Source: a virus
Taxonomy: Duplodnaviria; Caudoviricetes
IMG/VR virus record: IMGVR_UViG_3300020171_000031
Coordinates: 1-59,359 of that record
Reading direction: 5' to 3' (one strand)
DNA: 59,359 nt
The first letter of the stretch is position 1. The number at the start of each line of letters is the position of its first letter. Positions 4,701 through 44,164 of the stretch are shown in pieces. A program made the translations under genes and the position numbers. The notes under the pieces are model-generated. The model was given only the letters and a program-made list of their open reading frames with translations. It ran no database searches and had not been told where the DNA came from.

Positions 4701-4736
4701 AGGAGGGGCTGGGGCCAGCCCAGCCCCAGCCCCTCC
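4701..4736 (-). terminator. GC-rich hairpin after the candidate MCP
   Basis: ggaggggctgggg ... ccccagcccctcc inverted repeat; no clear U-tract. Confidence 0.5.
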
Positions 4737-4745
4737 AACTTGGTT

Positions 4746-5456
4746 CTACACCCAGACCGGAATGAGCTCGTTCAGGACGCGCCCATAGCCTACGACCAGG
4801 CCACCCCACTCCAGCTCGGCGTTGCCGTTCACATCCGCCTTGATGGCGCTGAACAGCTGGACGCGCGGCTCCGCGTAGACCGTCGGGATGGGCAGGATGC
4901 TCACCTGGTTCTCGTTGTCACCCACCCGTAGGGACCGGCACGGCTGCGGGATCAGGACCGTGCGCCCGATGGAAAAGCGGTACTCGCTCTCCAGCGGGGT
5001 GGGGGTGACCAGCGCGGTCAGGTGCGTGATGATGAGGCCGAAGTCCTGCCCCACCTGGTATCCCACGCCCGCCGCGTTGCTGGCGAAGTTGGTCCACGCG
5101 TTGGCCACCAGGGCGAGCTGGAGCCAGTTGGTGCGGTAGGCGCCCGCTATCTGGACGAACTGCGGGCGGATGAGCTGGAAGCCCAGCTCGGTGTCTCCCG
5201 GGTTGAGGCCACGGAACGGCGGGCCGTTCAGCTTCTCCTTGACCGCCCGGATGCCCGCCACGTAGGCGTCGATGCGCTGCATCTGGAGTATGCGCTGAAT
5301 GCTGGTGGGCGGGGCCAGCAGCGTGGGTAGCTGCGCATTGATATACTCCAGCTCCTGCGCGTCCAGCGAGGCCAGGTTGTACGACTGGTTGTACAGCCGC
5401 AGAGGCCCCGGGGTGTTGACTTCCGCCAGTGAGAGATTTCTCCACTGCACGTCCAT
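4746..5456 (-). CDS. Candidate single jelly-roll major capsid protein (236 aa)
   Basis: AGGAGG RBS before MDVQW; second gene after a sigma70-type promoter; followed by a strong hairpin; helical N-half plus beta C-half ending ELEWGGLVVGYG. Confidence 0.5.
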   Translation of the reverse strand: MDVQWRNLSLAEVNTPGPLRLYNQSYNLASLDAQELEYINAQLPTLLAPPTSIQRILQMQRIDAYVAGIRAVKEKLNGPPFRGLNPGDTELGFQLIRPQFVQIAGAYRTNWLQLALVANAWTNFASNAAGVGYQVGQDFGLIITHLTALVTPTPLESEYRFSIGRTVLIPQPCRSLRVGDNENQVSILPIPTVYAEPRVQLFSAIKADVNGNAELEWGGLVVGYGRVLNELIPVWV

Positions 5457-5511
5457 GTGGTCCTCCTGATTCATTCCGTTTGGGTCAGGTTGGGGTCAGC
5501 TCGGGGAAGGC

Positions 5512-15640: not shown

Positions 15641-15897
15641 CGCATCGCACTGTAGACCCCGCCGACGTGACGTGCGCCAGGGTGCTGGAGGTGTACCGGG
15701 AGTACATGCAGAAGCTCGTCCGCCGCTCATCGGACAATTTCCCTGGTCCAATGCCCAGATGCGTCCTCAAGTGGGCTGATGCCGGCTTCGTGCTAGAGTG
15801 CGACACCCCCGAAGATAGGGATAGGGCTGCGAAGGCGCTTTTGGAGGGCGAGGTGCTGGTCCGGGTCGCCTCTTGGGCCAAGCCCGACATCACGTAA
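15586..15897 (+). CDS. Hypothetical protein
   Basis: ORF in operon. Confidence 0.55.
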   Translation: MEPEEVAAALTHTYILAIAHRTVDPADVTCARVLEVYREYMQKLVRRSSDNFPGPMPRCVLKWADAGFVLECDTPEDRDRAAKALLEGEVLVRVASWAKPDIT

Positions 15898-15927
15898 CGG
15901 TGACGTACCCGTGACGTTACCGTTACT
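15894..15927. repeat. Iteron-like 9-bp repeats upstream of the initiator
   Basis: gtgacgtacccgtgacgttaccgttac; inverted near-copy at 16345-16371. Confidence 0.7.
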
Positions 15928-15957: not shown

Positions 15958-16791
15958 ATGGCGTGGATTCAAGTGCATCAGAGCCTGCCAACCCACCGCA
16001 AAACCCTGGCGGCGGCGGCCATTTTAGGGGTGTCGGGCGTGCAGATGGTCGGGCATCTGGTCACTTTCTGGCTCTGGTGTTTGGATAACGCACCTATGGG
16101 CCAGCTAGGCGAAACGCCCAATGCGGTGATTGCCAGCGCGGCCCTCTGGCCCGGGGAGCCAGACGTTTTCGTATCTACTCTTTGCAGCACGCGACTCCTG
16201 GACGGAGCGCCGGGCAACTTGGCAATCCATAACTGGCCGCAATATGGCGGCAAGCTGGTCGAGAGCCGGACCCGGGACGCCGCCCGGCAGCGGGCCTTTC
16301 GCGAGCGCGCACGGCCACCTGTATCTGATGGAGCGTTACCGTTACGTAACGGGTACGTCACGGGTACGTCACGCGCTAGAGTAGAAGAGAGTAGACTTAG
16401 TACTCCTAAGGAGAGTATAGATAAACAACAGTCTGAGGGAGAAGATACTCCGCGCGCGCGGAGTCACGCGCGCATAACGTCGGCAGCGGCATTGTTGGCC
16501 CTCTTCTCACCCACTGAGATGATGAACATAAAGACGCGGTTCAACGGCACCGACTTGGAGTGGGAGGCTGCGAAGTGCGTTGAGTGGCACAGCGCGAAGA
16601 CGAAGGGTGGCCTCCGTAACGGTAAGCTGGGCTTTCGCAATTGGTTGGACCACTGTAAGCAGCGGGAGGTGCGAGATCGAGGAGTCGGAGGAGTCGGAAA
16701 ACCCTATCAGTTCACGAACGCGGGGGACGCGGGGCCTGACGAGTCTCACGAGACTCCTGCCTCGGATGACGCGGGAGGTAGCGCAGTGTAG
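15958..16791 (+). CDS. Phage replication initiator (replisome organiser)
   Basis: MAWIQVHQSLPTHRKT...GHLVTFWLWCLD...IHNWPQYGG; internal iterons; precedes dnaC and dnaB. Confidence 0.85.
   Translation: MAWIQVHQSLPTHRKTLAAAAILGVSGVQMVGHLVTFWLWCLDNAPMGQLGETPNAVIASAALWPGEPDVFVSTLCSTRLLDGAPGNLAIHNWPQYGGKLVESRTRDAARQRAFRERARPPVSDGALPLRNGYVTGTSRARVEESRLSTPKESIDKQQSEGEDTPRARSHARITSAAALLALFSPTEMMNIKTRFNGTDLEWEAAKCVEWHSAKTKGGLRNGKLGFRNWLDHCKQREVRDRGVGGVGKPYQFTNAGDAGPDESHETPASDDAGGSAV
16334..16372. repeat. Iterons inside the initiator gene (putative origin)
   Basis: cgttaccgttacgtaacgggtacgtcacgggtacgtcac followed by an A-rich tract. Confidence 0.65.
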
Positions 16792-17536
16792 CTGCGGTAG
16801 CTCTTTCGCGCGCTATCGCGGGTTGCCTGTGCTACGGGAGGTCTGCGAGAAGTGCATCGCTGCGCAGATGCGGCAAAGCAGGCTCGACGCTCTTGCGCGA
16901 GTGCGGGAGGGCTTCAGACCGAAGAGCGGGATGCCGTACTTGCTGTGGGGCAAGACGTTCGCCACGTGGAAAGGCAAGTCCGCAGCGGTGACCACCGTGA
17001 GGGCGTGGGTTGACGCGTTTCCCCGGACTGCGCGTGGCTATCCATCGCTCTATCTCTTTGGACAGAACGGCGTCGGTAAGACCCACCTGGCCGCCGCGTG
17101 CTGCAACGCGCTCATTGACCGGTGGGACGGCGATACCAGCTCGGAGCGGCTGAGTCCCGTTCGGTACATCACGGCGCCGGCACTCTTGGCCCGGGTGCGC
17201 GCAACCTACAGGCCGGACTCCGCAGAGACGGAGGACGCCGTATACGAGGATCTCAGCCATGCGCCTCTCCTGGTGGTGGACGACGTGTTCAAGGAGACGG
17301 CGGCGGCTGGCCAGGACGACGCGCTCGTCTCCTCCCACACGCAGAGAGTGTACTTCCGCCTGATTGACGAGCGTTATGGGCAGGTCCTGCCCGTCTTACT
17401 GGTCAGCAACACGCCATTGGCGAAGCTGGAGACCCTCCTGGGCCGGGCGACCGCGTCCCGCATAGCCGAAATGACGCAGCACCGGTTTGTCCAGGTGGCG
17501 GGGCCTGACCACCGGCGGGGGCGTGATGTACACTGA
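16766..17536 (+). CDS. dnaC: DnaC/IstB-like helicase loader ATPase (start uncertain)
   Basis: Walker A GQNGVGKTHLA, Walker B LLVVDD, LIDERY, SN, SRI motifs. Confidence 0.9.
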   Translation: MTREVAQCSCGSSFARYRGLPVLREVCEKCIAAQMRQSRLDALARVREGFRPKSGMPYLLWGKTFATWKGKSAAVTTVRAWVDAFPRTARGYPSLYLFGQNGVGKTHLAAACCNALIDRWDGDTSSERLSPVRYITAPALLARVRATYRPDSAETEDAVYEDLSHAPLLVVDDVFKETAAAGQDDALVSSHTQRVYFRLIDERYGQVLPVLLVSNTPLAKLETLLGRATASRIAEMTQHRFVQVAGPDHRRGRDVH

Positions 17537-18965
17537 CCGTCTACCACCGCACTCTATCGACGCCGAGGAGGCCGTCCTCGGCTCGCTCCTCATAGACAGC
17601 GACGCCATCCTCAAGGTGGCCCCTTTCCTGAAGCCGGACGACTTCTACCGCGACAGGAACCGCTACTGCTACGAGGCGTGCATCTCCCTCGCGAATCGCA
17701 ACGAGGCCCTCAATCAGGTGACTGTGGCCCACGAGCTGGACCTGAAGGGACGACTGGACGAGCTGGGCGGCCCCGCCTACCTGAGCCACCTGGTATCCAT
17801 CATTCCGACCCCTCTCCACGCGGAGCACTATGGCCGGATCGTCGCGAAGTGCGCCGGCCTGCGCCGGCTTATCCAGGCGGCTGGCGAGATAGTCGGTATA
17901 GGCTACGAGGGGGCGCCTACTCTGGACGAGGCGTTCACCAAGGCGGAGGATGTGCTGTTCGCCGTCCGGCCGCCGCGGACCCGGCACGATTTCCGCCCGC
18001 TGCGCCAACTGCTGGATGAGTGGCTGGAAGAGCGCGATACGACCGAGGCGTTCTCGAAATCCGTCCCGCTGGCGACGGGCTATGAATCGCTGGACATGCT
18101 GCTCGGAGGCCTCCACGCTTCAGACCTGTTCATACTGGCTGGCCGTCCCGGCTTCGGCAAGTCCGCGCTGAGCCTGAACATCGGGAGGTACGTGGCGGGG
18201 GCGCAGCGGCCGGTCGCCCTGTTCAGCCTGGAGATGGGGGCGGACCAGTTGACCGTGCGCCTGCTGGCGTCCGAAGCGCGGGTGGACTCGCACAGGCTTC
18301 GGCTGGGCTTGCTGACCGAGAAGGAGGAACGGCGGATATTGGACGCCGTGGGGGCCCTCTCGGAGTTGCCCATCTGGATAGACGACTCCCCGCTCCTCAC
18401 CATCGCGGAGATGCGGAGCAAGGCACGGCGGCTGCACCAGGAGCACCCGCTGGGCCTCATCGTGGTGGACTACCTGCAACTGGTGGACGCGGGCGGCCGC
18501 TCTCACGGAGACCGCGTGGGGGAGATGAGCGAGGTGAGCAAGGCGCTCAAGGCGCTGGCCCGCGAGCTGGAGGTGGTGCTAATCGGCGTGTCCCAGTTGT
18601 CCAGAGCGGTGGAGGGGCGGCCTGGTCACCGCCCCCAGCTCTCCGACCTGCGGGAGAGCGGCTCGATAGAGCAGGATGCCGATGTGGTCGGCATGCTCTT
18701 CATGGAGGACCGCTATTGGACGCAAGAGGAGTGGGACTCGCACTTCCCCGCGAAGCCATACCCGCGAAATATCGCCGAGCTGATAGTGGCCAAGCATCGC
18801 CACGGCCCCACCGGGGCGGTGCACCTGTACTTCAACCGGGAGTACACCACTTTCGAGAACCTGCCGGACCAGGAAACTGCGGGCGGCGAGGCGGTCAACA
18901 GCGCTACCGGTGAGATAGGACAACCACGCTTGCCGATGCCGGACGCCACGGCAGGCAATGAGTGA
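17526..18965 (+). CDS. dnaB: Replicative DNA helicase
   Basis: PPHSIDAEEAVLGSLL, GRPGFGKS, VVDYLQL, SQLSR, DLRESGSIEQDAD, KHRHGPTG. Confidence 0.98.
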   Translation: MYTDRLPPHSIDAEEAVLGSLLIDSDAILKVAPFLKPDDFYRDRNRYCYEACISLANRNEALNQVTVAHELDLKGRLDELGGPAYLSHLVSIIPTPLHAEHYGRIVAKCAGLRRLIQAAGEIVGIGYEGAPTLDEAFTKAEDVLFAVRPPRTRHDFRPLRQLLDEWLEERDTTEAFSKSVPLATGYESLDMLLGGLHASDLFILAGRPGFGKSALSLNIGRYVAGAQRPVALFSLEMGADQLTVRLLASEARVDSHRLRLGLLTEKEERRILDAVGALSELPIWIDDSPLLTIAEMRSKARRLHQEHPLGLIVVDYLQLVDAGGRSHGDRVGEMSEVSKALKALARELEVVLIGVSQLSRAVEGRPGHRPQLSDLRESGSIEQDADVVGMLFMEDRYWTQEEWDSHFPAKPYPRNIAELIVAKHRHGPTGAVHLYFNREYTTFENLPDQETAGGEAVNSATGEIGQPRLPMPDATAGNE

Positions 18966-27066: not shown

Positions 27067-27096
27067 TTGACAAAGCCCTCTCATCTAATGTAGAGT
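27067..27096 (+). promoter_or_regulatory. sigma70-type promoter upstream of the tRNA and array 1
   Basis: TTGACA-18-TAGAGT. Confidence 0.6.
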
Positions 27097-27202: not shown

Positions 27203-27350
27203 AGTGAGCTGCCGAACAGTCGCCGTCCAAGACGGCGTTCGGAGAAGGAGATGGAGATATGCGTAGGGCACTCTCATGGGTCTGGGAAGCGCTGGTACGT
27301 GGCGAACAGTTGAAAGGGCTTTCCTGGGGGCCTTGGTTCCTGGTGCAGCC

Positions 27351-27692
27351 ATGACGGACCCGAAGGATGCAGCCTGTCCCCGCTGTGGAGCGGAAGCAGG
27401 TCAACCCTGTAAGACCAAGACGGGGGCGGTGGTCAACTCGCGAGGGAACGTGCATCCGGCGCGGCTCCCTTTGCCGAGCACCATTCTCACCCTCCTGAAC
27501 ACCAAGCTGGTGGACGTGTTGGAGTTCCGGCCGGCCGCCCGGGCTGGCCGGAAGGACATCCCGTGGTTGCTCCGTCGGGCCGCAGACGTGCTGGAGAGCG
27601 ACGACCGGCCCATCGAGGGGATAGAGCTCACCCTGGAGGCGGCGCCGGACGGCACCTGGGTGCTCGTGGCCCAGGTGGTGCATCCGCAGTAG
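27351..27692 (+). CDS. Zinc-finger protein directly upstream of array 1
   Basis: CPRCGA..GQPC...HPAR. Confidence 0.7.
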   Translation: MTDPKDAACPRCGAEAGQPCKTKTGAVVNSRGNVHPARLPLPSTILTLLNTKLVDVLEFRPAARAGRKDIPWLLRRAADVLESDDRPIEGIELTLEAAPDGTWVLVAQVVHPQ

Positions 27693-27694
27693 AG

Positions 27695-28020
27695 GGCGAA
27701 GGGGGAGGAAGGGCCAGGTCGGGGCAGGCTGGCGAACGGCTGGGAACGGAGAGGCTGGCGGTAGGAAAGGGGACGTGCGGCTTGGGGAGGTAGGCGGACG
27801 GAAAGGCGCGGCTCGGCTCTGGTAGGCGATAGGGTGGGGGCTAGAACAGGACAGGCTGGCGGAAGGTCAGGGAAGGGCGGAACCGGGTCGGCTAGGCTGG
27901 CGGTAGGAATGGGCCGGAATGGGGAGGCTGGCGGGAGGGCAGAACCGGACTGGGTTGGCCAGGCTGGCGGTAGGTTTGGGGAGGGCGGGCCAGGAGGCGA
28001 ACGGGCGAAGACAGGCACGG
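27695..28020 (+). repeat. GG-pentamer array 1 (9 full GGCG-delimited units plus a degenerate tenth); candidate guide RNA array
   Basis: GGCG at 27695, 27731, 27757, 27793, 27825, 27858, 27899, 27930, 27966, 27996; GG every 5 nt inside units. Confidence 0.9.
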
Positions 28021-29436: not shown

Positions 29437-30081
29437 ATGGCAGAGACAATCCAGGCGACCCCAGTAGTGACAACCCCCGTAGACCCCCTGGCCGACGAGG
29501 AGGCCAAGTTGCTGGCCAAGCTGGCCGCACTCCGGGCGGAGCGCGTGGTCAACACGGCCAGGGACATCTTGACGGCGGGCCTCAAGGCCAAGCTCCCGGA
29601 CGTGGTCAAGGCCGTCACGGACGAGGCCAAGTTCGACCTCCACAAGGCGGGAGTGGGCGTGTGGCTGTACTACGCCAAGGAGACGGGCAGCCCGATGATA
29701 TGCCTGCTCTCCGTCGGCGACGACGGCCTCCACCCCAAGGCCATGAAAGTCCACAAGGCGACCAACGGCAACGGGACGCCCAAGGCGGCCTCCAACGGCA
29801 ACGGCAACGGCAACGGCAACGGGAAGCCCGCCGGCGTCGAGTACGACGCCTTCCTGTACGACGGGCGGGGCCCGTTTCCCGTCGGGGCGGACTACAAGAC
29901 GGCGTACGACGCCGTCTTCGACGCCCTGGCCGTCCCGAAGGCGGAGCGCCCCAACCACAACAGGCCGGAGAGGTGGGCGGGCAAGTGGCAGGCCCGCGTC
30001 CTCATCGTGGAGCGCGGGAAGCGCCCCACAGACCAGCAGTTCGCGGAGGCCAAGGCGAAGGTGGCCTCCATCAAGTCCTAG
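29437..30081 (+). CDS. Hypothetical protein with RPxHxR domain
   Basis: AAGGAG RBS; very high GC3; NG linker. Confidence 0.8.
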   Translation: MAETIQATPVVTTPVDPLADEEAKLLAKLAALRAERVVNTARDILTAGLKAKLPDVVKAVTDEAKFDLHKAGVGVWLYYAKETGSPMICLLSVGDDGLHPKAMKVHKATNGNGTPKAASNGNGNGNGNGKPAGVEYDAFLYDGRGPFPVGADYKTAYDAVFDALAVPKAERPNHNRPERWAGKWQARVLIVERGKRPTDQQFAEAKAKVASIKS

Positions 30082-34963: not shown

Positions 34964-35761
34964 ATGAGCAGACCATTGTGGAAAGGCACGGTCAGTTTTG
35001 GCCTTGTCAACATCCCCGTGGCGCTCTATGGAGCGACGGACGAGCTGAAGGTCAGCTTCCGCACGCTCCACAAGGGGTGCGCTGCGCCCATCGCGCAGCA
35101 GCACACCTGCACCGCCTGTAAGCAGGTGGTGGAGAGGGCGGATGAGGTCAAGGGGTATGAGGTCGAGGAAGGCCGCTTCGTCGTCATGGAAGAGGCGGAC
35201 TTCGCGGGCCTCCCCGTAGCGTCCCAGACGAGCATCAAGGTGGTGGGCTTCGTGGACTCATTCCAGGTGGACCCGCGCCAGCTCGATGAGCCGTACTTCA
35301 TGGGCATCGGGCAGACCAAGCGGGGGAAGGTGAACGTCGTGGACCAGGGAGCGGCCAAGGGGTTTGCCCTCCTGCACGCCGCGATGCAGAAGCTGGACAA
35401 GCTGGCGGTGGCCAAGGTGACGATGCGCCAGCGGGAGAAGCTGGTGGTGTTCCGTCCCTATGGCGACGTGATGCTTCTCCAGACGTTGCGATGGCCCGAC
35501 GAGCTTCGGTCGGCGGAGGCGCCTGCTCTGCCGGAGGTCTCGGACAAGGAGTTGGCGCTGGCCGAGTCGCTGGTGAACGCCATCGGCGGGTGTGACCTGA
35601 CTAAGTTCAGCGACGAGTACCGGGAGGCGCTGGAGAAGGTCATCCAGGCAAAGGCGGCGGGCCAGCCCGTCGTGAGCGCGGTGCCGACGGAGGCCGAGGC
35701 CACGGTGGACGTGATGGGCGGCCTGGAGGCCAGCCTGGCGGCGCTGCGAGGAGCGGTATGA
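34964..35761 (+). CDS. ku: Ku DNA end-binding protein (NHEJ)
   Basis: RPLWKGTVSFGLVNIPVALY, VKGYE, LRWPDELR, DEYREAL, LEASL. Confidence 0.95.
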   Translation: MSRPLWKGTVSFGLVNIPVALYGATDELKVSFRTLHKGCAAPIAQQHTCTACKQVVERADEVKGYEVEEGRFVVMEEADFAGLPVASQTSIKVVGFVDSFQVDPRQLDEPYFMGIGQTKRGKVNVVDQGAAKGFALLHAAMQKLDKLAVAKVTMRQREKLVVFRPYGDVMLLQTLRWPDELRSAEAPALPEVSDKELALAESLVNAIGGCDLTKFSDEYREALEKVIQAKAAGQPVVSAVPTEAEATVDVMGGLEASLAALRGAV

Positions 35762-36048: not shown

Positions 36049-36263
36049 GCGAGGAGCGGCGCATCGGGATGAGAAAGGTGGGCCCGTGGGTCTATTGTGG
36101 CCACGGGCCGGAGGGTCTCTTGTGGGCGGCGCCCTCGGACATCGGGAACCTCGTCATCCTCCGATGGGTAAAACTGGGCTGGTGGCCGCTCATCCGGGTT
36201 CACGAGACTTGGGTGGAGCGGGACAGGCTCCTGAATGCCATTGAGAAGGGGGTGCTCAAGTGA
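36045..36263 (+). CDS. Hypothetical protein
   Basis: ATGA/GTGA coupling. Confidence 0.55.
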   Translation: MSEERRIGMRKVGPWVYCGHGPEGLLWAAPSDIGNLVILRWVKLGWWPLIRVHETWVERDRLLNAIEKGVLK

Positions 36264-37207
36264 AGCTGGAACCGATGCTGGCAGAGCCTGGGGTCAAGCC
36301 CCGTGTGGACCCGTCGCTCCTGCACGAGGTCAAGTACGACGGCGTGCGCACGCTCTTCGTCGTGGAGGACGGGCACGTCACCTTCTGGTCCAGGGGAGGG
36401 CACGACATCACCGCAGCGTTCCCCGAGCTGGCGGAGGTGCCGTCCCACCTCAAGATGCAGAACGGCGTTGGGGATGGGGAGATAGTAGTGGGCAACGGGA
36501 CGATGGCCGACTTCAACGCCATCTCGCGTCGCGTCCACGTGCAGGACCCCTTGAAGATTCGACTGCGCTCGCGGGAGACGCCGACTAACCTCCGGGTGTT
36601 CGACCTGCCCGTGTATGAGCGGGATGACCTCACGGTGAATGGCGTGCGGCTGTCGCTAATGCAGCGCCGCGAGTTGCTTGCGGCAACCATCCGGGGTGGT
36701 CTGCCGAATGGCGTGGTGTGCATGGGCGACGCTGGGGAGTTCGGCGACGGCGCGGCGTTCTTCCGCTCCTGCCTGGAGCAGGGCTACGAGGGCATGATGG
36801 TGAAGAGCAAGGCGGGCCTCTACTACCCCGGGAAGCGACACCCTGACTGGGGCAAGAGCAAGCTGGAGCAGACAGCCGACTTCCAGGTGGTGGGCTACAC
36901 CTGGGGTGAGGGATGGAGGGGAGAGCGCCAACTCTTCGGTGCGCTGGTGCTGTCCACAGGCACACCAGGCAATCTCCAGTATTGCGGCGAGGTGGGTGGC
37001 GGCTTTACCAATGAGGAGCTGGAGACCATCGGGGCCCACCTGCGCACGATTGCCGTCTCGCAATGCCCGATGGTCAAGCTGGAAAAGGTAGAGGGGCTGT
37101 GCTCGTGGGTCGCGCCAGGGCTGGTGGTCGAGGTTAAGTTCATGGACTGGACGAGTGACCGGAAGCTCCGCTTTCCAAGATTCAAGGCAGTCCGGAGGAT
37201 GCGATGA
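36260..37207 (+). CDS. ATP-dependent DNA ligase (LigD/LigC ligase domain only)
   Basis: EVKYDGVR, DGEIV, VFD, EGMMVK, YYPGKR, LRFPRF. Confidence 0.95.
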   Translation: MKLEPMLAEPGVKPRVDPSLLHEVKYDGVRTLFVVEDGHVTFWSRGGHDITAAFPELAEVPSHLKMQNGVGDGEIVVGNGTMADFNAISRRVHVQDPLKIRLRSRETPTNLRVFDLPVYERDDLTVNGVRLSLMQRRELLAATIRGGLPNGVVCMGDAGEFGDGAAFFRSCLEQGYEGMMVKSKAGLYYPGKRHPDWGKSKLEQTADFQVVGYTWGEGWRGERQLFGALVLSTGTPGNLQYCGEVGGGFTNEELETIGAHLRTIAVSQCPMVKLEKVEGLCSWVAPGLVVEVKFMDWTSDRKLRFPRFKAVRRMR

Positions 37208-39268: not shown

Positions 39269-39425
39269 CCTGCGAGTCGTGCGGGGGTAAGACGGCGATG
39301 TCGGAAGTGCCGAAGGATTTGGGATAGGCAGCGGAGATCAGTTTCTGAAGGAGGTGAGGCTGGACATTAGCTTGCGGGTCCCCATGCAATGGATGAAGAA
39401 TGCCTGAAAGAAGGAGATGGGAGAG

Positions 39426-39845
39426 ATGTCAGACACCAAACGGTTGTTCGTAATCAGCGGCAAGGAGTACCCGGACCCCGATGCGGCACTGACCGTCGAG
39501 GACGTGAAGAGCCATTACGCCGCCTTCTTCCCGGAGCTCGCGACGGCGACGGCCAAGGAGGAGGTGCGGCCCGACGGCGTCACGGTCGTGACGTTTGCGA
39601 GACAGGTAGGCACCAAGGGCGCGCTGGCGCCAGTGGTGCCGGCCACGTATCTGCCAGGCCGGCACGTATCTGCGGACCTCTCGGACTACAACCCCGGCGA
39701 CGAAGGCACGCGGAGGTGCTTGAAGTGCCTGGCCACGCAGGACTTCCGGGTCGGGCCCTATGGAGGCTTGCACCTCGGCCTTTGGAAGAGGGAGGGCAAG
39801 CCCGCTCCCAGGTGCCCGAAGGCGGCGAAGGGCGGCAGGTCCTGA
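39426..39845 (+). CDS. Prokaryotic ubiquitin-like protein (PRTRC protein C type) with C-terminal extension
   Basis: R.F....YPDPD..LTVEDVK.HYA.FFPELATA...VTF...VGTKG, then 74 extra aa. Confidence 0.85.
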   Translation: MSDTKRLFVISGKEYPDPDAALTVEDVKSHYAAFFPELATATAKEEVRPDGVTVVTFARQVGTKGALAPVVPATYLPGRHVSADLSDYNPGDEGTRRCLKCLATQDFRVGPYGGLHLGLWKREGKPAPRCPKAAKGGRS

Positions 39846-39873
39846 TGCCGATGTTCGTCCAGTGGGGCACTTG

Positions 39874-40086
39874 ATGGAGATGCGTGGTCTTGTAGAGCGG
39901 CTCGCCACCGTGCCGGAGGTGCGGCTGCGTATCATCCTGCTGGCCCATGCAGTCTGGCATGATGGCGAGCTGGACGAGAAGGCGCTGGACAAGATGCAAG
40001 CCGACTTCAACCTGGCCGTCGCGGAGCTGGAGGAGTACACACGCGGCACCGCGGTCACGGTCGCCCATCTGCGAGACCTCCTGTGA
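39874..40086 (+). CDS. Small PRTRC-locus protein
   Basis: Between the ubiquitin-like gene and the F-like gene. Confidence 0.6.
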   Translation: MEMRGLVERLATVPEVRLRIILLAHAVWHDGELDEKALDKMQADFNLAVAELEEYTRGTAVTVAHLRDLL

Positions 40087-40874
40087 GGCTGGCGGAACTG
40101 GCCGGCAAGCTGCGGATGGGGCCGCAGTCGCTACACGGTCTGCGTCGCGCACTGGAGAATGCGGAGGTCGTGTCGGACTTCCGCCGGCTGGTGCACGACT
40201 TCACGCCCCAGGCGGAGGCCCGCATACTGGCGGGAGACGAGCAGGAGCAGGTGCAGGCGTTCCTGCGGGAGTTTGGCCGGCAGACGGGCATCCCACTGAA
40301 CGACGACATCGAGGAGATTGAGCAGCTGCTCTTCTGTATGCCCATCATAGTGCGCGGCTGGTCCTGGGATGACTACATGGAGTGGTCCCACCACGACGTG
40401 CCGGACCAGGTGCTGCTCGCGCTGGTCCAGAGCCCCTTTATGGACGAGGACAATGCCGCGCTGGTAGAGAACCTGGCCCGGCTGGTGCGGGGTGAGGCGT
40501 ATGAGGCGTGGCGTCTGGCAACCCCAACCGGGTGGGAGCCGGCGGAGTTGCATGAGCGGCTGGATGGCACCAGGTGGGAAGGGGTGGCGCGCTTCGCCGA
40601 TTGGCTCTGGAGGGAGACGCAGACGGTCTATCTGGACATGAACTACGAGGAGATGAATAACGACCTGGAGTGGAGTCAGGCGAACGTGCGGTGGCTGCGG
40701 GAGCAGGCCGTGACGGCGGGCCAGATAGAGGACCGGATTGCCGAGGTGTACCACCTCATCGAGCAGAACCCGACGGAGGCGGTGCTGGATATGGTGCGGC
40801 TGATGGGTCCGCGACCCGGTCCGCAACTGCCGCTACCGTTGCTGGAGGTGTTCCGTGACGAACAAGAGAGCTAA
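40083..40874 (+). CDS. PRTRC-locus helical protein (protein F-like)
   Basis: Position in operon; acidic, Trp-rich. Confidence 0.5.
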   Translation: MRLAELAGKLRMGPQSLHGLRRALENAEVVSDFRRLVHDFTPQAEARILAGDEQEQVQAFLREFGRQTGIPLNDDIEEIEQLLFCMPIIVRGWSWDDYMEWSHHDVPDQVLLALVQSPFMDEDNAALVENLARLVRGEAYEAWRLATPTGWEPAELHERLDGTRWEGVARFADWLWRETQTVYLDMNYEEMNNDLEWSQANVRWLREQAVTAGQIEDRIAEVYHLIEQNPTEAVLDMVRLMGPRPGPQLPLPLLEVFRDEQES

Positions 40875-41718
40875 AGGCGTCTGCCCCACTTGTGGACGTG
40901 ATGTGGCTTTGCGGTTGGATGGCACTCTGATGGTGCACCAGCGGTTCTTGGGGACCTCCCTGCCTGATGAGCGAGGTTTCGCGACGCAGACATCACCTGA
41001 TTGCAATGGAGTAGGTCAGTTACCGGTAACGGACCCACCCGCAAAGGCTGGGTTTCACTGGGCGCTGCCACGGGGGCTGGACGTGGAGCCGGATGTGCTC
41101 CAGCTGCGGTTGGACTTCTACCTTGACACCATCCTGCTGACCGACATGCGCGGAGGGGTCAGCACCGTGAAGCCGGTCAGCGCCCGCGACATCGTGCAGG
41201 CGCTGACGCGGGACGTGGCGGTCCAGACGGGCGTGTTGCCGCCCGACGCTCTCTGGTGGCGCAACGGGCCCACCGGAGCCACGGTGGCCTTCTGGCAGCC
41301 GCCCCAGGTGCGCATCCTGGCGTTGCTAGAGCACGCGGGACAGGAGCCGCTGCGGTGCGAGGTGCCGCTGCCCGGCATGGTGTTCGCCTGCCAGCCGGCC
41401 CGTGCCCCGTGGGTCTGGGCCGCAAAGCACCGCCCGACAGGGCCAGAGGCCCTGCTGTACCACGCCCCCCTGTTCAACGTGTTCCGCGATGGCCGTACCT
41501 GCCCAGGCACACAGAGGTATTCGCCAGCGGTGGAGCAAATCCCGTTTGAGTTCTGGGTATCGTTTTTCACGGGTGAGGCGGACCACACGGAGCGGAGCCG
41601 GGCATACCCCAAGAGTCTGAAGGCGCTCTGGCAGAGCCTGGAGGGGGCGAAGCGTTACCCGCCGGATGACCTGGTGCAGTGGGGGGCTGTAAAATCGGCA
41701 ATGGAGGTGGCGCGATGA
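40855..41718 (+). CDS. Prokaryotic E2-like protein (PRTRC protein B type) with N-terminal Zn finger
   Basis: PLPGMVF, RP....LYHAPLFNV..DG..C.G, FW.S.FT. Confidence 0.8.
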   Translation: MTNKRAKGVCPTCGRDVALRLDGTLMVHQRFLGTSLPDERGFATQTSPDCNGVGQLPVTDPPAKAGFHWALPRGLDVEPDVLQLRLDFYLDTILLTDMRGGVSTVKPVSARDIVQALTRDVAVQTGVLPPDALWWRNGPTGATVAFWQPPQVRILALLEHAGQEPLRCEVPLPGMVFACQPARAPWVWAAKHRPTGPEALLYHAPLFNVFRDGRTCPGTQRYSPAVEQIPFEFWVSFFTGEADHTERSRAYPKSLKALWQSLEGAKRYPPDDLVQWGAVKSAMEVAR

Positions 41719-42341
41719 TGGAGGCAAGACCGGACTTCCACTATGAGACGCACGAGGAGTTTTGGAAACGTACTCATCCAGACCCAAAGGTTCGGCGCCC
41801 GGTCGCCTACATGGTGGAGGGCCGGCGCACGGCGCCCGGGCTTGGCTACAGCTACGTGTTGGCTGGCAACGGCCTGTGGATTGAGGCGACGGGCCCCCAC
41901 CTGGCCGTTCGGTTGGAGGTGGCCGAGGCGGAGGTCAGAGGTCTATCGAGCCTAACCCAAGAGGTACGGCTCCTTCACGGGCCAATTCCGAAGGCGCTAC
42001 ACGACCTCCTGGTAGACGTGCTTCTGGCTAATCCGCGAGAGGAGCACTACGTCGCCATCCTGTGGCGCGACGGGCGCTACCAGCTCACCGTCCCAGACCA
42101 GCTTGCGCAGGTCGCCTCCATGACGTACCAGAGGCCAGACCCAGCGGAGCTGGTGTTGGAGGCGCACTCACACCCTCCCGGTGTGGTGGCGCGGTTCTCG
42201 CTGGTGGATGACCGCGATGAGCAGGGGTTGGGCCTGTACGGGGTGTTGGGCATGGATGAGGCAGGCTGGACACTCGCGCTCCGCGCGGGGGTGTACGGCT
42301 ACTACGGTGACGTGGACGTGGCGGAGATCTTCGACGGGTAG
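41715..42341 (+). CDS. JAB/MPN metallo-isopeptidase (PRTRC protein A type)
   Basis: YVLAGNG, E, HSH.....FS..DD.DE, R.GVYGY. Confidence 0.88.
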   Translation: MMEARPDFHYETHEEFWKRTHPDPKVRRPVAYMVEGRRTAPGLGYSYVLAGNGLWIEATGPHLAVRLEVAEAEVRGLSSLTQEVRLLHGPIPKALHDLLVDVLLANPREEHYVAILWRDGRYQLTVPDQLAQVASMTYQRPDPAELVLEAHSHPPGVVARFSLVDDRDEQGLGLYGVLGMDEAGWTLALRAGVYGYYGDVDVAEIFDG

Positions 42342-42610
42342 GCGAAGGGGTGGTTTGGGCCGGGTACGCTGGCGGATGGCTCGGTACGGGCAGGGAAGGC
42401 TAGGAGGGCGAAGGGTAAGAGCTGGAGAGGGGCGGATAGGCTGGCGAAGCGACAGGGGTGGAGCGGCCATGAAGGCGGAGGGTTCGGGATGGGTGGGCTG
42501 CGGGCGGCAAGGGCGGCGATAGGCCAAGAAAGGCGCGGTAGGGCGCGGCGAGGACGGGCTGGCGTAAGGAGAGGGGAAGGGTGGGACGGTTGGCGAAGGG
42601 TGGGGAGGAA
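42341..42610 (+). repeat. GG-pentamer array 2 (7 full GGCG-delimited units plus a degenerate eighth); candidate guide RNA array
   Basis: GGCG at 42341, 42371, 42407, 42443, 42474, 42515, 42561, 42592; GG every 5 nt. Confidence 0.9.
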
Positions 42611-42641
42611 CCGACAGAATAAACAGAAGAAGGAGAAAGAA

Positions 42642-43388
42642 GTGGCAGACGCGAAGGAAGTCAAGGACCTCAAGTTCACGAGGTATCCGGTGACCCTCAC
42701 GATGCACGGGCCCCTGCACGCCACGACGGCGAGCAACCCGGAGAGCATCGCGTACCAGCTACGGAATCAGCCCAGCGAACCCGACCTGGCGGCGCGGCTG
42801 GCGGCAGGGGAGCCGCTCAAGCCGATGGATGCGCTCCAGAAGCAGGTCGAGCAGGAGGCGGGCGCTGCCGAACCACCCCCGGAGCCGATGGCGGTGTTCC
42901 GCCGCGACGACCTGAAGCGGCCGTTTATCCACGACAACTTCATTCGGGGCCACCTGCGGGACGCAGGTGAGGCCCTGTCACGGGCCCTGGGCGTGTGGGG
43001 GCTCCAGCAGCTCATCACCCGGACGGTGTTCGTCCGGCCCGAGCGCATCTACCTCCCGGTGGGCTGCACGGTAGAGGTGGAGACGTGGCCGGCGCACTCC
43101 GACGTGTACCGCATGGGGAGAATCTCCAGCATCCGGCGCGCCGAGTTTGCGCTGGGCGTCACGCTCGAGTTCCGCCTCTACGTGGTGAACGACCCCCGGT
43201 GGGCAGGCGCGAACGGCCGGAAGATTCTGACGTCCGTTCTCCAGTACGGCGCCATCCACGGCATTGGAGGTGGCCGTGGTCGCGGCATGGGGCGCTACAC
43301 GTTCATGCTCGGGGAGGCCATGGAGGTGGAACCCGCCCAGGTGTGGAGCGATATGCAGATTGGCGAGGGTCCATGCCATACCGCATAG
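42642..43388 (+). CDS. Stand-alone Cas7/RAMP-like protein (248 aa)
   Basis: N-terminal strand VTLTMHGPLH, PFIHDNFIRGHLR helix, LEFRL strand, Gly-rich loop YGAIHGIGGGRGRGMGRY; AAGGAG RBS before GTG. Confidence 0.8.
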   Translation: MADAKEVKDLKFTRYPVTLTMHGPLHATTASNPESIAYQLRNQPSEPDLAARLAAGEPLKPMDALQKQVEQEAGAAEPPPEPMAVFRRDDLKRPFIHDNFIRGHLRDAGEALSRALGVWGLQQLITRTVFVRPERIYLPVGCTVEVETWPAHSDVYRMGRISSIRRAEFALGVTLEFRLYVVNDPRWAGANGRKILTSVLQYGAIHGIGGGRGRGMGRYTFMLGEAMEVEPAQVWSDMQIGEGPCHTA

Positions 43389-44164
43389 TCCCGCCTCTTA
43401 CGGCACGTAAACCCCTACTCCTCATCGCGGGCTGTGGCGGCACTGGGAATTGGGTGGCGGAGGGCATCGCCAGGTGGCTGCCCGCTGACTGGCGCCTCGT
43501 CCTGGTGGACCCCGACGTGGTGGAGGAGCACAACCTGCGGCGCCAAGGGTTCCTAAAGAAGGAGGTGGGGAGTTACAAAGCCGAGGTGCTGGCCAGGCGG
43601 CTGGCGGACGGGACCGGCCGGGCGGTGGGATTCGCCGTCGTGCCCATCCGCACCGTGGTGCAGCAGGACCATGAGTTACGCCTCGTTGTGGGTTGCGTGG
43701 ACAACGCGGCGGCCAGGCGGGAGGTCCACGAGGGTCTCCCGCTCGGGGCCTGGTGGCTGGACGCTGGCAACGGCCGCAACTCGGGCCAGGTCCTGCTGGG
43801 GAACGTCCGCGATGCCAGGTCGCTGGAAGGAGGGTTCGCACCCACCGGGACCTGTGACAGGGTGCCCCTGCCCACTCTCCAGATGCCCGAACTGCTGGTG
43901 CCATCTCAGGAGGAGCTGGAACCACTGCCGCCGGACTGCGCGGAGGCGGTGCGAGACGAGCGGCAGAGCCCCGTGGTGAACCAGGCGGTCGCAGGGCTGG
44001 CGCTCAATATGGTATGGCGGTTCCTGCGGGGCGAGTTGGACTGGATGGCGGCGTATCTGGACCTTGATATGGGGACGCTGCGCCACGTCCCGTGTGAACC
44101 CGCCACGGTGGCCAGGCTGTGCGGCGTCAAGACGCGGACCCTACTAGCTAGGGGCGTCCGGTGA
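43373..44164 (+). CDS. ThiF/E1-like activating enzyme (PRTRC type)
   Basis: GCGGTG, DPDVVEEHNLRRQ, GCVDN, WLDAGNG, DCAEA, N. Confidence 0.92.
   Translation: MPYRIVPPLTARKPLLLIAGCGGTGNWVAEGIARWLPADWRLVLVDPDVVEEHNLRRQGFLKKEVGSYKAEVLARRLADGTGRAVGFAVVPIRTVVQQDHELRLVVGCVDNAAARREVHEGLPLGAWWLDAGNGRNSGQVLLGNVRDARSLEGGFAPTGTCDRVPLPTLQMPELLVPSQEELEPLPPDCAEAVRDERQSPVVNQAVAGLALNMVWRFLRGELDWMAAYLDLDMGTLRHVPCEPATVARLCGVKTRTLLARGVR

Follow-up and report, generated by a model that had tools for sequence, protein, structure and literature searches.

Can a single Cas7-like protein and a G-rich intergenic array make up an RNA-guided system of a virus? This question is raised by a locus of the IMG/VR record IMGVR_UViG_3300020171_000031, of which the whole stretch of 59,359 nt (hereafter the window) was analysed. 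The window is the complete 59-kb record of a groundwater phage, with direct terminal repeats and a completeness of 100% by CheckV. Its plus strand carries a gene for a solo RAMP protein, vipr (42642..43388), preceded by array B (42341..42612), an array of degenerate GG/NNN pentamers; a second array, array A (27695..28010), is located farther upstream. We give a probability of about 0.85 to the reading that the window carries a Viral Interference Programmable Repeat (VIPR) system, comprising one vipr gene and two same-strand arrays. This kind of system is already known, and the locus is a new example of VIPR, not a new kind.

VIPR, a class of RNA-guided DNA recognition, has been known for only months, and of its systems only those of type II have been dissected so far. 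It is the subject of two 2026 preprints (10.64898/2026.04.26.720920 and 10.64898/2026.04.26.720927) and of a further one (10.64898/2026.10.15.759431). According to the available text of the VIPR preprints, a system of this class combines a solo phage RAMP protein (Vipr) with vrRNAs composed of YNNGG repeats; the protein grips GGY, and the NN bases pair with double-stranded DNA, every third target base being skipped.

Two plus-strand arrays with a 5-nt GG period

Array B extends from the last base of the stop codon of a JAB-type gene to about 30 nt short of the vipr start. The region 42341-42641 is composed, on the plus strand, of 52% G and only 10% T. A 5-nt period of GG had been noticed in this region from the sequence alone, and its autocorrelation against shuffled sequence had been suggested as a check. 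This analysis gave a peak at lag 5, with 34 GG pairs where 1000 dinucleotide shuffles yielded 19.8 +/- 3.6 (z 3.9), further peaks (z 2.4) at both lag 10 and lag 15, and a depletion at lags 1-3. Every 300-nt segment of the genome was then scored on both strands for how far lag 5 exceeded lags 2, 3, 7 and 8. Array B was the top segment (z 9.6), followed by 27676-28000 (z 7.9), while the best segment of the minus strand reached only z 4.9; the period is strand-specific.

Junction-type GGCG motifs start in array B at 42341, 42371, 42407, 42443, 42474, 42515, 42561 and 42592, thus delimiting about eight units. The resulting unit lengths of 30, 36, 36, 31, 41, 46 and 31 nt are exactly those of the original prediction, and the unit that it had spelled out as an example is present at 42371 as written. 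A canonical AGGCTGGCG junction occurs only once in array B, at 42438. Array A, which was not part of the original observation, is on the same strand as vipr, 14.6 kb upstream of it, and is better formed: it is composed of about 10 units with in-phase GG runs (z 7.9) and carries six canonical junctions, at 27726, 27752, 27853, 27894, 27925 and 27961.

The vipr product has a RAMP fold

The vipr gene encodes a Cas7-like protein of 248 aa with a GTG start. An AAGGAG ribosome-binding site, read directly from the sequence, is located at 42630..42635, 6 nt before the GTG, and the N-termini of homologues align at this start. The protein matches the Pfam RAMPs family PF03787 with 22.5 bits (cut-off 22.1; E 1.7e-4) over profile positions 2-188 of 189. 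As had been proposed for positions 42642-43388, the protein was modelled with AlphaFold2 and the model compared with known structures by Foldseek. The model, built from five sequences, has a mean predicted local distance difference test score (pLDDT) of 73. It gave 109 Foldseek matches in the PDB at E<=0.001, the best with E 5.7e-8, and all listed matches are chains of CRISPR effector complexes of the Cas7/Csm3 kind. In a VIA-align comparison with 48,161 representative chains, the best match was a type VII Cas7 (Z 12.3, root-mean-square deviation 2.9 over 137 residues), followed by Csm3 (Z 11.5 and 11.0), and the top 24 matches were all RAMPs. The SUSP1 Vipr structure is not among the Foldseek or VIA-align matches listed, and a PDB sequence search with the single protein returned nothing relevant. 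The predicted solo Cas7/RAMP protein is therefore borne out at the level of both sequence profile and structure. As is typical of VIPR, it is a stand-alone RAMP with an RRM core, a thumb and a glycine-rich loop; this G-loop reads GIGGGRGRG and ends in GIGGGRGRGMGRY.

The fold and the G-loop are common to Cas7, Csm3, Cmr4 and type VII Cas7. Since the best structural matches are Cas7 subunits of types VII and III, the locus might be envisaged as a reduced CRISPR-Cas system, originally of type III, IV or VII, of which only Cas7 and a decayed mini-array are left. A total of 6+58+41 open reading frame (ORF) translations, taken from rough gene calls with short ORFs left out, were scanned against Pfam, NCBIfam and PHROGs, and no cas gene other than the RAMP was found among them. 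In the complete genome, TRF revealed no CRISPR-like array and no repeats of CRISPR length, and Rfam, including its CRISPR repeat and ribozyme families, gave no match, in agreement with the initial impression that neither cas genes nor CRISPR repeats were visible. Unlike class 1 CRISPR-Cas, which is recognised by a repeat-spacer array together with Cas5, Cas6 and a large subunit, the window presents one protein, no CRISPR repeats and none of Cas5, Cas6, the large subunit or the adaptation genes. The backbone subunits of class 1 systems also polymerise along the guide RNA with a fixed step, which for Cas7 is 6 nt according to the available preprint text (10.64898/2026.04.26.720920), whereas the window has a period of 5 nt and a conserved junction of only 9-11 nt. 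Moreover, the longest alignment of the family profile is with SUSP1 Vipr. A CRISPR-Cas remnant is consequently exceedingly improbable, and the absence of both a cas operon and a CRISPR array from the complete genome is as expected of VIPR.

Homology to the characterised SUSP1 Vipr

A resemblance of the locus to VIPR had been pointed out at the outset. A profile of the 70-member family of the window protein was aligned by hhalign with a profile of 32 relatives of the experimentally characterised SUSP1 Vipr, giving a probability of 95.4% (E 1.8e-8) over 124 columns. These columns run from helix 1 to the G-loop and include the thumb region. The alignment with the single SUSP1 sequence reached only 61% (E 8e-5). 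A hidden Markov model of the family matched one of the 109 SUSP1 ORFs, which is the vipr gene itself (E 2.6e-4). Against PDB chain 36pp_D, named 'SUSP1 Vipr protein', the family profile aligned over about 150 residues (E 0.025); it scores Csm4 and Cas7 higher than this chain, but those matches cover only the G-loop. At the profile level, these comparisons show homology to Vipr, though not strongly. SUSP1 R179 aligns with the invariant R212.

Unit grammar of the arrays

Inspection of the arrays of the window and of its relatives revealed a common unit grammar, G(G/A)CG-(NNNGG)3-9-CT, based on 68 perfectly formed units from 8 arrays of 6 loci. A unit comprises 3-9 pentamers, with a mode of five, and the commonest unit is 31 nt long, with the consensus GGCG.A.GG...GG...GG...GGg.AGGCT. 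In internal pentamers (n=214) all three N positions are near-uniform; at N1, for instance, A, C, G and T account for 0.29, 0.22, 0.29 and 0.20, in line with the earlier remark that any nucleotide may follow GG. The last pentamer, on the other hand, is R-Y-A-GG, with A at 93%, so that adjoining units are joined by an 11-nt conserved junction, RYAGGCT|GGCG. The GGCG/AGGCT junction seen initially in array B is thus retained in the relatives. Across this junction a GG-to-GG step of 4 nt is followed by one of 7 nt, so that the 5-nt register is broken. Of the units bounded by canonical junctions (100 in 10 arrays), 79 have a length of 5n+1 nt (20% expected). With this length and with directly abutting units, each unit shifts the pentamer register by one.

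The same unit lengths bear on whether translation of the array region could add an arginine/glycine-rich extension to the N-terminus of the RAMP. Indeed, the vipr frame is open from 42342, with no stop across the array, and contains an ATG at 42489 preceded at 6 nt by GGAGGG. With 10% T, however, 100 codons without a stop are not unusual (we estimate about 5% per frame). Moreover, in the closest relative two in-frame stops precede the ATG by no more than 6 codons, and all 12 aligned relatives start at or near the equivalent of GTG 42642, which has its own AAGGAG. As the units are 5n+1 nt long and only 19 of the 100 are multiples of 3, the junction would be read in shifting frames. Such an extension is extremely unlikely.

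Comparison of the arrays of the window with those of locus L001, whose protein is 86% identical, showed that only the junctions and two units are common to both, and the rest differs. Unit 27752-27797 of array A is 96% identical to a unit of the L001 array. The junctions are kept and the variable positions differ, which is the repeat-and-variable pattern expected of guides.

A side observation concerns the 1.3-kb array of another relative (L004, 2600-3975), in which several units occur twice, identical or with single changes (for instance, 2995 and 3247, 2814 and 3676, 3335 and 3818). It suggests that units multiply by local duplication.

Arrays of the same grammar accompany vipr homologues

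A profile search of 1.84 billion representatives revealed 714 relatives at E<=0.001, of which just 10 reach E<=1e-30, indicating that the clade of the window itself is small. A tblastn search of 50,697 phage records gave one weak match (E 0.03). The close relatives come from one IMG/VR record, eight metagenome contigs (one being the same record) and one metagenome-assembled genome (MAG) of Chloroflexota (contig JAXHUA010000054.1), amounting to nine loci. The search for similar arrays beside homologues, suggested at the outset, was positive: seven of the nine close loci have arrays of the same grammar immediately before or after the vipr homologue, without exception on the strand of this gene. 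The two contigs devoid of an array are cut off, one ending 42 nt upstream of the gene and the other inside it. The L004 array contributes 39 of the 100 units counted above. In a distant clade, 21 of 29 IMG/VR loci carry at least three in-phase runs of TG pentamers on the vipr strand, compared with 0-1 on the other strand. It follows that the whole family is tied to 5-nt arrays, of which the fixed pair and the junction vary by clade. Thus, intergenic tandem pentamers with fixed and hypervariable positions, placed on the vipr strand as in VIPR, are found in both the window and its relatives.

The conservation of these arrays also bears on whether the G-rich periodic DNA could be a structural or regulatory element, such as a G-quadruplex or curved DNA, unrelated to the RAMP gene. 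The strand contains 52% G with many GG and GGG tracts, and quadruplexes could form in principle. Nevertheless, the same grammar and junction recur beside homologues in otherwise unrelated neighbourhoods, and the TG pair of the distant clade is incapable of G-quadruplex formation, although the arrays of that clade retain both the 5-nt period and the association with the gene. We consider this explanation very unlikely.

Two further observations were made on these loci. The distant TG arrays (L036-L064) are composed of short units cut by a junction near ACGCCGAG and are mostly located just downstream of the vipr homologue. In the Chloroflexota MAG, the junction motif occurs 180 times, compared with 48 in a control, but these occurrences are scattered.

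Points against a VIPR assignment and the search for targets

Several results weigh against the assignment to VIPR. First, array B is degenerate: only one of its roughly eight units, that at 42371, is perfectly periodic, although five pass when one broken pentamer is permitted. Second, pyrimidines make up 42% at N1, which departs from the canonical GGY/NN motif. Third, type II arrays have 9-16 repeats and a structured 3' tail, whereas the units of the window have 3-9 pentamers and no structured tail was found between them, the arrays folding no better than shuffles (z -1.15 and -0.46). Fourth, a 31-nt unit has only about three fully variable pentamers, that is, 6-9 variable bases, which are too few to define a unique site. 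Fifth, SUSP1 D177 and W178 align by hhalign to glycines in the family of the window. In SUSP1 these residues contact G1 and G2, according to the available text of the second preprint (10.64898/2026.04.26.720927), and the way in which GG is gripped may thus differ. Sixth, VIPR systems typically, though not universally, have an accessory (vap) gene in a two-gene operon, but no such gene is conserved here, the neighbours differing in every relative's locus examined. Finally, none of the RNA runs searched for 42200-43400 contained this stretch, and the target searches described below were negative.

For these searches, 11 reading rules were used, taking N2N3, N1N2 or N1N2N3 with 0-3 skipped bases. 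When 71 guides were compared with 214 kb of sequence under all 11 rules, both mean mismatches and perfect matches were the same as for shuffled guides. No excess was seen for the guides of the window against the whole of G001 (a co-occurring relative), for the guides of G001 against the window, or in either self-comparison. The likelihood of codon structure in the variable bases, relative to the codon usage of this phage, was equally unremarkable (z -0.55, 0.61 and 0.71). Four exact scans of IMG/VR gave zero or chance-level matches: the 9-pentamer unit of L004 had two matches under the published rule, both to the same 41%-GC sequence and at chance level, and none as contiguous triplets; unit 42371 of the window had none as contiguous triplets; and unit 42515 had 16 scattered, unrelated matches under the published rule. 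As the units are short, the power of these searches is low.

The missing GGY does not exclude membership in the wider VIPR family, since NNNGG is listed as an alternative repeat, together with YNNNG and NNNNG, in the legend of Fig. S18 and in methods section 20 of the first preprint (10.64898/2026.04.26.720920).

The negative target searches could be accommodated if the arrays were bound by the RAMP as RNA or DNA elements rather than as programmable guides, serving, for example, as an autoregulatory or assembly scaffold on the transcript of the protein's own operon or as a decoy for a competitor's Vipr. The failure to find a target under any rule and the little information per unit are in keeping with such a role, as is the position of array B, which is the 5' leader of vipr itself. 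However, the variable positions differ almost wholly between arrays of 86%-identical proteins whose junctions are kept. Furthermore, array A is far from vipr, the arrays of relatives are also found downstream of the gene, and the characterised relatives are guide systems. A non-guide element therefore appears unlikely, and a VIPR system remains the preferred reading.

Comparison with known VIPR designs and a possible mode of action

The window resembles the type II VIPR of SUSP1 in encoding, in a phage, a solo single-RRM RAMP with thumb and G-loop and with profile-level homology, in the lack of cas genes and of a CRISPR array, and in its intergenic pentamer arrays on the vipr strand, with a fixed GG and hypervariable positions. 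There are also differences. The repeat is GG/NNN in the window and GGY/NN in SUSP1; the units have 3-9 pentamers (mode 5) instead of 9-16; they abut via RYAGGCT|GGCG, whereas each SUSP1 unit has a structured tail; a conserved vap gene is lacking; and the G-loop is GGGRGRG instead of GDWRPRFG. In the SUSP1 genome, which was examined for comparison, the two-gene locus is flanked by GGT-NN runs, then a tail.

The first preprint also refers to 'staggered vrRNA arrays', whose successive vrRNAs adjoin, each starting at the end of the one before it; in its available text, these are not among the arrays confirmed by small-RNA sequencing (10.64898/2026.04.26.720920). The units of the window likewise abut directly and use an NNNGG repeat, so that, as far as the legend and methods text go, the design of the window may well be that of the published staggered arrays. 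Units as short as these (mode 31 nt) are not mentioned in the available preprint text, nor does it offer a counterpart to the conserved 11-nt junction, to the divergent G-loop or to arrays that have neither a tail nor a conserved accessory gene. In addition, a genomic-language-model study reports, in its available text, 21 clusters of 5-nt arrays that deviate from GGY (WGT/NN, TGH/NN) beside Vipr-like folds (10.64898/2026.10.21.760802). The TG arrays of the distant relatives look like these arrays. The latter have about 10 repeats, unlike the window, and short units delimited by junctions are unmentioned in that text (10.64898/2026.10.21.760802).

On the model of the SUSP1 system, the arrays would be cotranscribed with the flanking genes. 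One Vipr protomer would occupy each pentamer of the RNA, gripping GG and leaving the variable bases exposed, and these bases would then pair discontinuously with the double-stranded DNA of a competing mobile element, silencing it. We likewise infer processing at the junctions, binding of the RNA by the protein, and DNA rather than RNA as the target, as well as the reading rule. Since the junction breaks the 5-nt register, it is probably where one filament or processed RNA ends and the next starts, and a boundary of this kind is its most likely role. In SUSP1, the filament has six subunits per turn when bound to RNA and five once DNA is bound, according to the available text (10.64898/2026.04.26.720927). 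A modal unit, with its six GG sites, could thus correspond to about one filament turn. Given the few variable bases, either three bases per pentamer would be read, or several units would cooperate, or a low specificity would be tolerated.

We also considered whether all these peculiarities could jointly define a distinct type of VIPR. Such a type would use mini-guides of about one turn (5-6 GG sites, 31 nt) with an 11-nt junction, devoid of tail and accessory protein; its G-loop, lacking the D-W pair of SUSP1, would expose three bases per pentamer, and it would have its own reading rule or several short units acting together. Taken as a whole, this proposal is possible but doubtful.

Together with its relatives, the locus provides a clean natural series, namely the 100 units counted above. 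Their layout is very compact: GG is constant, each pentamer leaves three bases free, a unit amounts to about one helical turn, and the conserved junction is short. Should they be true guides, they are the shortest known, raising the questions of how specificity could arise from so little variable sequence and of whether two or three bases are read per GG/NNN pentamer.

Genomic neighbourhood and mobility of the module

In the window, array B and vipr interrupt a prokaryotic ubiquitin-like cassette (39417-44164, plus strand). It comprises Prok_Ub (39417-39845), an unknown ORF (40083-40874), Prok-E2_D/PRTRC_B (40855-41718), a JAB/PRTRC_A-like gene (41679..42341; Pfam/NCBIfam) directly upstream of array B, and a ThiF/E1-like gene (43373..44164), which overlaps the 3' end of vipr by 16 nt. 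The last one matches Pfam ThiF (E 2.4e-13) and PRTRC_ThiF (E 1.3e-37), all NCBIfam PRTRC scores being under their cut-offs. The JAB and ThiF genes are not conserved beside vipr homologues in the loci examined, and the available text of the VIPR preprint says nothing of neighbouring ubiquitin, JAB or ThiF genes. The cassette was initially considered as a functional partner; this idea was dropped because no relative keeps it beside vipr, and we regard the JAB and ThiF genes as context, outside the system. No promoter-like site was detected ahead of array B by a consensus scan, and this array is located within a row of co-directional genes.

Array A is flanked by a zinc-finger gene and a small hydrophobic ORF. 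The zinc-finger gene (27276..27692, plus strand), directly upstream of the array, matches Pfam PF24623 (E 2.5e-9); its product is a putative DNA-binding phage zinc-finger domain protein, and it is possibly a candidate accessory gene. None of its homologues was seen adjoining the arrays of relatives in the loci examined. According to the promoter/terminator consensus scan, a promoter-like site at 27067-27096 precedes the unit formed by the zinc-finger gene and array A.

Comparison of the window with the 86%-identical relative showed that vipr alone is common to both across 20 kb, and the neighbours of the other relatives are unrelated. As the neighbourhood is not kept, the array-plus-vipr module seems to move as a unit. 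Run X1, a possible source of the window, has contigs of a second vipr allele, which differs at about 100 positions over 600 nt, and of its array; two runs from another groundwater study contain exact pieces of the window. Co-occurrence is judged here from DNA contigs only. The array-plus-vipr module is common, at 86% protein identity, to two otherwise unrelated phages of the same run, consistent with a transfer of such modules between competing viruses. As a separate observation, one groundwater sample contains two different vipr-bearing phages, and the co-occurring phage, G001, is an 85.8-kb relative with a complete record and terminal repeats.

Other features of the phage genome

Scans against PHROGs and Pfam revealed, among others, DnaC-like and DnaB-like genes, an integrase, Ku, a ligase and a MoxR/vWA pair; these phage genes and the complete virus record place the system in a viral genome, as is characteristic of VIPR. 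No tRNAs were found in the genome. A weaker 5-nt GG period (z 4.9) occurs on the minus strand at 4715-5000, with runs such as GTTGG AGGGG CTGGG GCTGG GCTGG. It apparently lies within ORF 4746-5474 of the same strand, and a coding repeat is the probable explanation. Tandem repeats of 11 nt form two sets, ACGTAACCGTG x2.9 at 15892-15923 and TACGTCACGGG x2.8 at 16343-16373; these are located upstream of the DnaC-like and DnaB-like genes (16580-18965), and may represent origin iterons. A perfect hexamer repeat, CAACGG x5, is present at 29793-29822. Farther along the plus strand, the segment 31132-34487 encodes an AAA ATPase of the MoxR/CbbQ type and, after it, a protein of 785 aa whose C-terminal part is a vWA domain. 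A phage-borne end-joining pair is encoded by a Ku-like gene (34964-35761) and a nearby ATP-dependent DNA ligase gene (36260-37207).

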